64,000 bases of DNA from Candidatus Sysuimicrobium calidum (GTDB lineage Bacteria; Sysuimicrobiota; Sysuimicrobiia; Sysuimicrobiales; Sysuimicrobiaceae). Below, piece after piece: positions 56,878-58,144 of this stretch; position 1 is the stretch's first letter; each line of letters starts with the position of its first letter. The notes under the pieces are model-generated. The model did no database searches, was not told the origin of the DNA, and saw nothing but the letters and a program-made list of their open reading frames with translations. Made by a program: the position numbers and the translations under genes. The DNA is taken from the NCBI GenBank assembly GCA_031459935.1, contig JAVKHN010000003.1:32289-96288 (forward strand), read 5' to 3'.

Positions 56878-57971
56878 CAGCGCACCCCCGCCCGCTGGAC
56901 CACGTCCTCCAGGAACCGGTCGAAGAGGTCCCGGCTGTCCCGGGGTCCGGGGCGGGCCTCCGGGTGGAACTGCACGGACCAAACCGGCAGGTGCTGGTGC
57001 CGGATGCCCTCCACGGTGCCGTCGTGGAGGTTGCGGTGGGTCACCACAAACCCCGTACCCACCAGACTCCCTTCGTCTACCGCGTAGCTGTGGTTCTGGG
57101 TGGTGATGCGCACGCGACCGGTGGCGTGCTCCAGGACCGGGTGGTTGGAGCCCCGGTGCCCGAAGGGGAGTTTGAAGGTCTTCGCGCCCGCGGCCCGGGC
57201 CAGGATCTGGTGTCCCAGGCAGACCCCGAAGATGGGAAGCCGGCCGAAGAGGGTTCGCAGCCGCTGGGCCACGGCGTCGAGACGACGCGGATCCCCCGGA
57301 CCGTTCCCCACCACGAGACCGTGGGGATGAAGCGCCAGGATCTCCTCGACCTCCACCAACCCGGGGAGCACGATCACCTCGCACCCCCGGGCGGCGAGCT
57401 CCCGGGCGATTCCCATCTTTATCCCGCAGTCCAGGACCGCGATGCGAGCGCCAGGCCCCGGAAGGAGGATGGGTTCTTCCGGCAGCACCTCCACCACCAG
57501 ATCCTCTTCGGCGAGGTCCGGGAGCGACCGGGCCCGGGCCACGAGTTCGTCCGGATCCCACTCCCCGGCGGCGATCACCCCGCGCCGGAGCCCGTGGGTG
57601 CGCAGGTGGCGCACGATCCGTCGGGTGTCCACTTCCGCGATGGCCACGATCCCCTGCCCGCGCAGGTACTCGGAGAGGGTGAGGCGGCCGGCCCAGTGGC
57701 TGGTGTAGGGGCTGGCTTCCCGTACCACGAAGCCCCGCAGGAAGGGCCGGCGGGACTCCGCCCACTGGGGGCTCACCCCGTAGGTGCCCATCATGGGGAA
57801 GCTCATCACCACGATCTGGCCCGCGTAGCTGGGATCCGTGAGCACCTCAGGATAACCGGTCATGCCCGTGGTGAACACCACCTCCCCACCCGAGATCCCC
57901 TCCGCCCCAATGGAGATCCCCCGCACCACGAGGCCGTCCTCCAGCGCGAGCCACCCGGGTTGCATATTCAT
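56877..57971 (-). CDS. carA: Carbamoyl-phosphate synthase small subunit (glutamine amidotransferase)
   Basis: MNMQPGWLALEDGLVVRGISIGAEG… plus a class-I GATase (VCLGHQ). Start chosen at MNM (57971), or MQP at 57965. The in-frame ATG at 58061 lies upstream of a terminator and is rejected as the start. Confidence 0.85.
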   Translation of the reverse strand: MNMQPGWLALEDGLVVRGISIGAEGISGGEVVFTTGMTGYPEVLTDPSYAGQIVVMSFPMMGTYGVSPQWAESRRPFLRGFVVREASPYTSHWAGRLTLSEYLRGQGIVAIAEVDTRRIVRHLRTHGLRRGVIAAGEWDPDELVARARSLPDLAEEDLVVEVLPEEPILLPGPGARIAVLDCGIKMGIARELAARGCEVIVLPGLVEVEEILALHPHGLVVGNGPGDPRRLDAVAQRLRTLFGRLPIFGVCLGHQILARAAGAKTFKLPFGHRGSNHPVLEHATGRVRITTQNHSYAVDEGSLVGTGFVVTHRNLHDGTVEGIRHQHLPVWSVQFHPEARPGPRDSRDLFDRFLEDVVQRAGVR

Positions 57972-57995
57972 ACACTGAAGTGTATCACTATACAC
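57959..57995. promoter_or_regulatory. Two tandem ARG-box-like palindromes overlapping the carA start codons (candidate ArgR operator)
   Basis: In carA sense the sequence reads GAAGTGTATAGTGATACACTTCAGTGTATGAATATGCAACC. Core 1, TGTAT-AGTG-ATACA, is a perfect palindrome. Core 2, TGTAT-GAAT-ATGCA, overlaps ATGAATATG (MNM). Spacing is 20 bp centre to centre. The consensus is shared with the argC site, and argR is encoded in the window. Confidence 0.5.
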
Positions 57996-58005
57996 TTCGG
58001 GGTGT

Positions 58006-58039
58006 AAAGAAAACGCCCGCGTTTTCTCCCTGCGGGCGC
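58006..58039 (-). terminator. Rho-independent terminator closing the dnaJ…TauE…58145 operon, immediately upstream of the carA control region
   Basis: In minus sense the sequence is GCGCCCGC-AGGGAGAAAAC-GCGGGCG-TTTTCTTT: a 7-bp GC-rich stem, an 11-nt loop and a U-tract. Confidence 0.6.
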
Positions 58040-58144
58040 ACAGATCTCCTCTCGCCTCCATCGCTCCCTCCCGGAGAGCATTAATGGTCGGCCACGCTGC
58101 TTAAAACTCTAGCAGATGGGTGGGGAAAGGCGCAACGGGATTTC

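Follow-up and report, generated by a model that had tools for sequence, protein, structure and literature searches.

Results

The carA control region

Here we describe the control region of carA in a 64,000-nt stretch of Candidatus Sysuimicrobium calidum DNA (contig JAVKHN010000003.1, positions 32,289 to 96,288), referred to throughout as the window. The region lies on the minus strand, in a 173-nt gap between the stop codon of the upstream gene (TGA, 58147-58145) and the carA ATG at 57971. Read 5' to 3', this gap holds a candidate promoter (P1), a hairpin that includes a Shine-Dalgarno (SD) sequence and an AUG, a terminator, the -35 element of a second candidate promoter (P2), ARG box 1 and ARG box 2 (Table 1). 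Local GC content is 53-59% as compared to ~70% in the surroundings, which bears out the AT-rich island described in an earlier note on this DNA. The terminator hairpin, the TTTACA hexamer and the two boxes, one of them over ATG-AAT-ATG, are likewise found on the minus strand where that note had placed them. Its boundaries for the region (57955-58070) were too narrow, cutting off the 5' half of the SD-AUG hairpin and a promoter that reaches 58135.

Table 1 Features of the carA control region and associated loci in window coordinates.
Feature	Positions	Strand	Remarks
P1 -35 TTGCGC	58130..58135	-	read from sequence; 18-nt spacer to -10
P1 extended -10 TGcTAGAGT	58106..58114	-	predicted promoter; predicted transcription start near 58099
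PyrR-type hairpin	58056..58089	-	conservation, covariation, folding, covariance model R2
Hairpin lower stem	CCAU 58087-84 / AUGG 58061-58	-	3' strand holds leader AUG; flanking U/G extends stem, CCAU(U)/(G)AUGG
Hairpin bulge UAA	58083-81	-	followed by U 58080, which pairs with G 58062 as base of upper stem
Hairpin upper stem	GCUCUC 58079-74 / GGGAGC 58068-63	-	6-7 bp; U.G beside closing C-G
Hairpin loop CGGGA	58073-69	-	5 nt
Leader SD GGGAGGGAG	58064..58072	-	within hairpin loop and 3' strand; invariant in all leaders
Leader open reading frame	57972..58061	-	ATG 58061-58059; 30 codons running into carA, total frame 394 aa
Terminator/attenuator	58006..58039	-	GCGCCCGC 58039-32 / GCGGGCG 58020-14, then UUUUCUUU 58013-06; folding
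P2 -35 TTTACA	58003..58008	-	overlaps terminator T-run; promoter scan
ARG box 1	57979..57996	-	18-mer AGTGTATAGTGATACACT; core palindrome TGTATAGTGATACA at 57994-81; matrix score 16.3
ARG box 2	57959..57976	-	18-mer AGTGTATGAATATGCAAC; core TGTATGAATATGCA at 57974-61; matrix score 24.2
carA	56877..57971	-	364 aa from ATG 57971; NCBIfam TIGR01368, 440 bits
carB	53683..56880	-	overlaps carA stop; NCBIfam NF003671, 1438 bits; start placed by synteny with L081
argC operator	51987..52024	-	boxes GTTGCAACATCATGCAAT and CGTGTATGGTTATGCCAT, 20 bp apart; matrix scores 19.6 and 17.2
argR	44474..44944	-	TIGR01529, 130.9 bits vs cut-off 130.45; ends argCJBDGH cluster

Related carA loci were found through CarA protein homology (68-87% identity, labelled Armatimonadota/GAL15-type metagenome-assembled genomes, MAGs), and DNA was fetched for 10 of them. 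L-numbers denote fetched DNA loci and P-numbers CarA homologue proteins. A metagenome scan for the exact hairpin core returned 26 matches, comprising 17 further carA leaders and 9 chance matches in coding regions. Promoters, terminators and reading frames were counted in a pool of 23 related leaders, and ARG boxes in the 22 complete ones. A separate CarA search of genome contigs gave, among the matches listed, relatives at no more than 51% identity that were uninformative for the leader; two loci from that search, L001 and L024, later yielded bona fide PyrR loops.

A conserved hairpin sequesters the leader SD and AUG

The hairpin block, CCAT(T/G)AANG(C/T)TCTCCGGGAGGGAGCNATGG, was found in all 10 loci that CarA homology had yielded. 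Beyond the degeneracies written into this consensus, these loci, chosen without reference to the pattern, show one change only, a C to U at which pairing is retained. The flanks diverge at once on both sides, and conservation stops right after ATGG. As folded, the hairpin sequesters both the SD and the ATG of the leader. The predicted minimum free energy (MFE) is -12.6 kcal/mol (z -2.41). Across 20 distinct sequences, 93.5% of cells are paired and one U.G is invariant, while the pair at the base of the upper stem alternates GU9/UG6/AU2/GC2 (19 of the 20 sequences), with a covariation score above those of all 500 shuffles and of all slid controls. The invariant U.G and the covarying pair point to an RNA structure and not a DNA palindrome. 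A DNA operator was considered and rejected on the bulge, the invariant U.G and the G.U/U.G/A-U/G-C alternation. Separately, an unrelated metagenome contig (L094, 269-288) carries the 17-nt core GCTCTCCGGGAGGGAGC with an ATG directly after it, away from carA and with no CCAT..ATGG frame.

A promoter-like sequence accompanies the hairpin. The extended -10 TGnTAnAnT occurs in 23/23 leaders, 9-18 nt before the hairpin, and a TTGCR/TTTAC hexamer lies 17-18 nt 5' of it, again in all 23. From the predicted start, the hairpin would begin 2-11 nt into the P1 transcript. Both the hairpin and P1 are retained behind each of the upstream genes seen, GHL10, a HepT toxin and rsmE.

The earlier note had offered as its simplest reading that the terminator serves the upstream dnaJ operon and is followed by a single ArgR-repressed promoter, with the SD-ATG possibly present by chance. 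Two points favor it: the hairpin and U-run would also stop transcripts of GHL10, which has no other terminator, and there is good evidence for the ARG boxes and P2. No other 30 nt of the region are, however, as well conserved across the 10 relatives retrieved through CarA as the SD-ATG block with its complementary 5' strand. The block is preceded by its own conserved extended -10 and followed by a sharp loss of conservation after ATGG, and it occurs behind three different upstream genes. The adjoining gene is moreover GHL10/DUF4985 and not dnaJ, and the terminator is retained regardless of the upstream gene. A mere upstream-operon terminator with a chance SD-ATG is therefore quite unlikely.

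Similarity of the hairpin to PyrR binding loops

We compared the hairpin with known PyrR sites using a reference consensus taken from a Bacillus badius Rfam match (CCUUu/aAAGG lower stem, UAAa bulge, ucAGUC/GGCUga upper stem, CaGaGA loop). The window hairpin keeps the strong positions of the Rfam consensus, namely CC..GG, the AA bulge, the top U.G and C-G, and a C..G..GA loop. As is typical of RF00515, it lies in the 5' leader of a pyrimidine-pathway gene, here carA, upstream of an intrinsic terminator. Rfam miRNA and snoRNA matches in the region were discarded as noise from the palindromic boxes.

A covariance model, R2, was built on the Rfam consensus structure from three outside PyrR loops (B. 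badius, an Erysipelotrichaceae MAG and Thermus). The B. badius and Erysipelotrichaceae loops are Rfam gathering-level matches, and the Thermus pyrR locus (L118) was located through the PyrR protein of Thermus, whose sequence is that of PDB 1ufr. Run unfiltered on both strands of the window (128 kb of strand), R2 gave 58056-58089 on the minus strand as its sole significant match, at full length, with 22.4 bits and an E-value of 0.0044 that is rough, given a shortened calibration, three training sequences and a Thermus loop below Rfam gathering. The runner-up in the window scored 11.9 bits (E 2.2). Over 624 kb of other loci, R2 returned eight matches at E<=5: the three training loops, three plausible extra PyrR sites on the carA strand, one clade hairpin and one weak match (L030, 16 bits, E 1.9). 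In unfiltered searches of 14 clade loci, the homologous hairpin ranked top in 12. On the carA strand, R2 matches of 26-28 bits fall in two Clostridia MAG loci (L057 1666-1700 and L018 1655-1689), and there is a second match in Bacillus badius (L001 586-622); these may be PyrR sites that fall under the Rfam threshold.

The Thermus pyrR leader (L118 2383-2487) itself scores 33 bits against RF00515, as compared to a gathering score of 54. The Rfam PyrR threshold systematically misses GC-rich sites, Thermus included, and Rfam silence on such sites is consequently weak evidence. On these sequence comparisons, PyrR or a close functional equivalent probably reads the carA hairpin.

The leader reading frame and the attenuator

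The ATG at 58061, with its strong SD, is in frame with carA, as previously noted, and opens a 394-aa open reading frame (ORF). The terminator lies within codons 8-19 of the leader ORF, 22 nt past the AUG, so that its 5' arm starts after 7 codons and not after the 12 counted before. The stem is 7-8 bp of GC with an 11-nt loop, extended by GAGGAGA/UUUUCUU pairing (MFE -16.3 kcal/mol, z -1.88), and the GC hairpin followed by a U-run has the form of an intrinsic terminator. Our terminator scan missed it, the scan being limited to loops of 8 nt. The scan did call a terminator-like hairpin on the plus strand at 58000-58018, overlapping the complement of the attenuator 3' arm, the U-run and the P2 -35. 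This plus-strand call is probably incidental, since there is no end of a plus-strand gene close by.

A hairpin with a T-run occurs at the equivalent place in 13/23 leaders with differing stems, e.g., GCUUGC/GCAAGC in L089. In those 13, the leader ORF always extends to the terminator 5' arm at least. In L090 it ends 4 nt short of the arm. The spacer that follows the SD-AUG hairpin is 18 nt and non-conserved. In the MFE folds of the 23 leaders, the SD-AUG hairpin is formed alongside the terminator, with no sign of an alternative antiterminator. Given that the two structures coexist with no alternative pairing, relief of termination would need a ribosome that enters the terminator 5' arm.

These folds bear directly on Bacillus-type PyrR attenuation, where the loop would act as an anti-antiterminator and the leader ORF would be irrelevant. 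A PyrR-like loop followed by a terminator is indeed the Bacillus layout. The absence of antiterminator pairing from every MFE fold, the compatibility of loop and terminator, the short (~18 nt) non-conserved spacer between them and a loop that holds the SD and AUG as in Thermus all argue against it, and we consider this mode very unlikely here.

The ORF from ATG 58061 continues into carA in the window, in the six relatives closest to it and in L088. In most other leaders (L086, L087, L089, L090, L091, L093, L097 and more) it is closed by stops. Overall, leader ORFs in the relatives either end after 6-49 codons or are fused to carA, with the leader stop lying within ~20 nt of the carA AUG or overlapping it. 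The other two leader frames of the window end at a TGA that overlaps the carA ATG (57970-68) and at a TAG in box 1 (57990-88). Since the AT-rich boxes supply stops, any leader frame would deliver ribosomes to the carA start.

The leader peptide is not conserved. Compared with L081, the window has a +1/-1 indel pair that puts the terminator stretch in another frame yet leaves the RNA stem intact, and the GC content at third codon positions (GC3) is 53% in all three frames of the leader stretch as compared to 88% in carA. The in-frame fusion as a conserved or selected protein feature was rejected, the frame being closed in many relatives and its 30 codons carrying no coding signature; a special meaning for the shared frame, which the earlier note found odd, is not supported. 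Arginine codons of the leader as an arginine attenuator were rejected as well; these codons follow from hairpin DNA rich in CGN, and the pyr leader of Thermus is just as rich in Arg.

Public CarA gene calls in the clade (P0001-P0005, P0017, P0020, P0021) start too far upstream and translate regulatory DNA. The apparently conserved CarA N-termini 'LHNDT..CMNMQ', 'MNMQ' and 'MNIH' are ARG boxes read as codons, and the calls are 27-30 residues too long.

A predicted ArgR-covered promoter with a probable leaderless carA start

The promoter scan called P2 as TTTACA-18-TACACT with a TG before the -10 (9/12 matches; 0.1 expected in shuffles). Its -10 TACACT (57984-57979) forms the last 6 bases of ARG box 1 and ends 7 nt before the carA ATG. 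Box 2 follows after a 2-bp spacer, TC (57978-77). The core of box 2 spans ATG-AAT-ATG (57971-63), and the box lies over the carA ATG as well as the start site predicted for P2.

The pattern TGNAT-N4-ATNCA has two sites in the 64-kb window, both at carA (0.14 expected). We also scored the window with a symmetrised position weight matrix (PWM) built from the boxes of the 22 related leaders with the window left out. The top four sites were carA box 2 (24.2), argC box A (19.6), argC box B (17.2) and carA box 1 (16.3); the fifth scored just 7.3. The argC boxes overlie the -35, -10 and start site of TTGCAA-17-TATGGT-6-ATG(51988), and the carA and argC operators share the same 20-bp register and overlap promoter hexamers in both cases. 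ARG boxes are present in 22/22 complete leaders. The clade consensus TTTGCATAATTATGCAAA matches the Streptomyces-type consensus AWTGCATRWWYATGCAWT (PMC5291005) at 16/18 positions, with carA box 2 matching at 15/18 and box 1 at 12/18. Published ArgR operators take an 18+2+18 form with a spacer of 2-3 bp (PMC4381063), and the carA boxes are likewise tandem 18-bp imperfect palindromes separated by 2 bp. The motif also occurs at argC, and argR lies in the window; the sister operator and the argR gene together provide regulon evidence for ArgR at carA, with the argR product as the presumed trans-acting repressor. Combined with the boxes of the relatives and the published consensus, this evidence makes the predicted ArgR control of the carAB promoter highly likely, and the earlier suggestion of an ArgR-repressible promoter with tandem boxes over the start codon is upheld.

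No SD for carA was found in the 25 nt upstream of ATG 57971. The P2-like geometry recurs in 9/10 SD-less relatives as a -35-like hexamer, 18 nt, TACAAT/TACGAT/TGCAAT, 7 nt and ATG. In three SD-less relatives, the box-2 ATG is followed by 20-30 non-conserved in-frame codons and then the conserved LALEDG motif, and a codon-by-codon check of L086 found no further in-frame start codon after the box-2 ATGs. Relatives that have a canonical SD before carA (L090, L091, L093 and others) place the -10 within a box and have a short 5' untranslated region. From this arrangement, the carAB mRNA made from P2 is likely leaderless. The argC gene, whose -10 ends 6 nt before its ATG, likewise appears to be leaderless, with the same operator design as at carA.

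The reverse interpretation, in which the 394-aa ORF is the true carA and the hairpin, terminator and boxes merely encode an N-terminal extension, is the least probable of those considered: the five closest homologues were given the long start by gene callers, a strong SD precedes the ATG and the frame stays open across a 9-nt length difference and the +1/-1 indel pair in the subclade, yet the extension is conserved as DNA motifs and not as protein, its GC3 is 53% vs 88%, stops close it in L086, L087, L090, L091 and others, distant homologues begin at a translated ARG box ('MNMQ', 'MNIH') or at LALEDG, and the stretch holds a promoter-like site and operator sites common to argC.

Gene context

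Upstream of the carA leader lies the GHL10/DUF4985 gene, preceded by TauE and metallophosphoesterase genes (Pfam, NCBIfam). These three are inserted between rsmE/prmA/dnaJ and carA. The slot from rsmE to the carA leader (58145-61430 in the window) varies among relatives: the window and L081 have the metallophosphoesterase-TauE-GHL10/DUF4985 set there, L086 (2138-2811) has a nucleotidyltransferase/HepT toxin-antitoxin pair, and in L087-L091 it is empty. The carA leader and its promoter are intact in every version of the slot. The arginine cluster at 44474-51988 on the minus strand is complete, with argC, argJ (49743-50960), argB, argD, argG, argH and argR, and no ornithine carbamoyltransferase gene was found among the window ORFs scanned. 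A gene for an ABC substrate-binding protein at 52101 on the plus strand diverges from the argC gap and could share the argC operator.

Discussion

A proposed mechanism for carAB control

We favor a composite model in which carAB is served by tandem promoters, P1 with a PyrR-type, translation-coupled attenuator and P2 with ArgR repression and a leaderless carAB mRNA; we judge this combination to be probable. P1 would start the leader RNA, the first ~35 nt of which would fold as the PyrR-type hairpin over the leader SD and AUG. A regulator, most likely PyrR with UMP/UTP, would keep the hairpin closed, preventing ribosome loading and allowing the terminator to form and stop transcription before carA. 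When pyrimidines are scarce, the hairpin would be free, and a ribosome could initiate at AUG 58061 and trail the polymerase into the terminator 5' arm, resulting in read-through. On P1 transcripts, the ribosomes that translate carA would all have to come through the leader ORF, whose frame is fused to carA in this genome; with no SD at carA, leader translation is the sole evident route we infer to carA from these transcripts. P2 would start in the carA ATG region, 7 nt from its -10, and yield leaderless mRNA. Arginine-bound ArgR on the two ARG boxes would cover the P2 -10, the start site and the start codon, shutting P2. The sequence elements and their conservation, the RNA pairing, the likeness to PyrR loops and to the Thermus leader and the operator design common to carA and argC were observed directly; both transcription starts, PyrR as the binding factor, the coupling of ribosome to terminator and the binding of ArgR are parts of this model that we infer from the DNA.

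The earlier note had raised a translated leader that ties ribosome passage to terminator formation, in response to arginine or pyrimidines. Its pyrimidine form survives as a PyrR-type hairpin with a Thermus-like arrangement, while arginine attenuation through Arg codons does not. The SD-ATG it thought might be chance exceeds every other element of the region in conservation and has a conserved promoter of its own.

More speculatively, promoter choice could set the form of CarA, with P2 giving a leaderless 364-aa protein and P1 a 394-aa protein bearing a 30-residue non-conserved extension; the relatives would instead use termination-reinitiation. The factor at the hairpin could then be both an attenuator and a direct translational repressor of CarA, and the hairpin either a PyrR site of a 5-nt-loop class absent from earlier models or the target of another factor. 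We put this wider scheme forward tentatively.

Several observations weigh against the composite model. P1 was not called by the consensus promoter scan (8/12 matches). Ten of the 23 leaders have no hairpin that passes a strict terminator rule, and the 391-aa subclade (L084, L085, L099) is without a clear terminator. In 70% GC DNA, the length of the leader ORF carries no statistical weight, and pairing alone could account for the conserved AUG. The Rfam PyrR model (RF00515) gave no match at gathering, and relaxing to E<=10 on stretches of 221 nt and of 46 nt gave none either; the CGGGA loop has 5 nt as compared to the 6 nt of known PyrR loops. R2 counts for less given its rough calibration, and a clade-only model, R1, finds the window copy but neither the Bacillus nor the Thermus loop, being too narrow. 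In the metagenome scan, the exact hairpin core was found before no pyr gene and before no gene other than carA. A search by PRPP (phosphoribosyl pyrophosphate) motif found no pyrR/phosphoribosyltransferase gene in the window or 25 clade loci. In an observation of its own, L084, L085 and L099 retain the hairpin, the SD-AUG and the in-frame fusion, and their MFE fold also allows the SD strand to pair instead with a CUUUCCCCC run further downstream; control in this subclade may be purely translational.

The missing Rfam match, the loop one base short, the failure to find pyrR in the window or clade loci and the restriction of the exact hairpin to carA also favor a related reading, in which a real RNA control element over the leader SD and AUG is not read by PyrR. 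It might bind another RNA-binding protein or a small ligand, or might just determine how fast the leader is translated, with attenuation then resting on the coupling of polymerase and ribosome as in the UTP-sensitive attenuation of E. coli pyrBI. A loop with GGA motifs over an SD is, in addition, reminiscent of CsrA-type sites. Against this, a model trained on PyrR loops alone picks the hairpin from 128 kb of strand, every strong position of the Rfam consensus is kept and the arrangement equals that of the Thermus pyrR leader. Coupling of the pyrBI type would further need a conserved U-rich pause region 5' of the terminator, and this is absent. Control of this kind, without PyrR, is a credible but unlikely alternative.

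Comparison with known systems

The P1 control proposed for carA finds its nearest counterpart in the Thermus pyrR-pyrB-pyrC leader. In Thermus, a TTGCGC...TAAGGT promoter is followed by a loop, GGCCUUUAAACCGGUCCAGCGAGGCCGGAAAGG, with a 3' strand that continues into the SD AAGGGGG, and then by an AUG and a 28-codon ORF. The Thermus terminator (GCGGGGGGUUUCGCCCCCGC + U6) lies inside this ORF, and the leader stop overlaps the pyrR GTG. Van de Casteele et al. reportedly proposed in 1997 that PyrR blocks translation of the Thermus leader so that the terminator forms. The two leaders share a TTGCGC -35, a 5'-proximal PyrR-type hairpin with the SD on its 3' strand, and a short, non-conserved, Arg-rich leader ORF that has a GC hairpin and U-run inside it and reaches the first structural gene. 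At carA, the loop overlaps the leader SD, the terminator is inside the ORF and the ORF reaches carA. The target is however carAB and not pyrR-pyrB, and the carA hairpin also buries the AUG. Its loop has 5 nt as against 6, and its stems differ by flipped pairs, three in the upper stem and one in the lower. The carA leader continues in frame into its gene, whereas that of Thermus overlaps its gene out of frame. In addition, carA has no SD of its own, and an ArgR-controlled second promoter sits between terminator and gene.

The Bacillus-type sites of RF00515 are similar to the carA hairpin in their CC..GG lower stem, A-rich 5' bulge, 6-bp upper stem with U.G and C-G, purine loop (C-N-G-(N)-G-A) and downstream terminator. 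They differ in that the carA hairpin scores under Rfam thresholds, lacks an antiterminator, is GC-rich and has a loop one base shorter. In Mycobacterium smegmatis, PyrR is said to repress translation through a loop that occludes the ribosome-binding site (RBS) of pyrR itself, with no terminator (attributed to Fields & Switzer, 2007). A PyrR loop over an RBS is common to that case and to carA, and is probably the sole mode left in the terminator-less 391-aa subclade.

In E. coli and Salmonella, carAB is transcribed from an upstream pyrimidine-controlled P1 and a downstream ArgR-repressed P2, 67 nt apart (PMC6524683; PMC6245113). As here, the enteric P2 is overlapped by two ARG boxes at which ArgR occludes it (PMC6524683; PMC6245113). 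PepA, IHF, PurR, RutR, PyrH and UTP-dependent stuttering control the E. coli P1 at the initiation step (PMC6524683; PMC6245113), in contrast to the RNA hairpin and attenuator predicted here. The promoters in the window are ~128 nt apart, and the E. coli carA mRNA has a leader and an SD. The likeness of this P1 to the E. coli P1 is best read as analogy and not homology. ArgR/AhrC operators in general are tandem 18-bp imperfect palindromes with a 2-bp spacer over promoter elements (PMC5291005, PMC4381063), as are the carA boxes. The carA operator differs in its half-site, which is TGCAT/TGTAT (Streptomyces-like) and not TGAAT, and in the placement of box 2 over a predicted leaderless start codon.

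Significance

All components of the carA control region are of known kinds. What is new is a variant of the PyrR-type loop that current models miss, its use on carAB, its pairing with an ArgR-covered leaderless promoter and the dependence of carA translation on a leader, each as predicted above. Carbamoyl phosphate feeds both arginine and pyrimidine synthesis, and how a single carAB integrates two signals is a classic problem. To our knowledge, this integration has so far been worked out mainly in enterics. The locus provides a compact natural case for comparing SD-led and leaderless initiation of one gene. Our analysis also suggests that an uncultured, GC-rich and probably thermophilic lineage has reached an E. 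coli-like two-promoter logic with parts of the Thermus and Gram-positive type.

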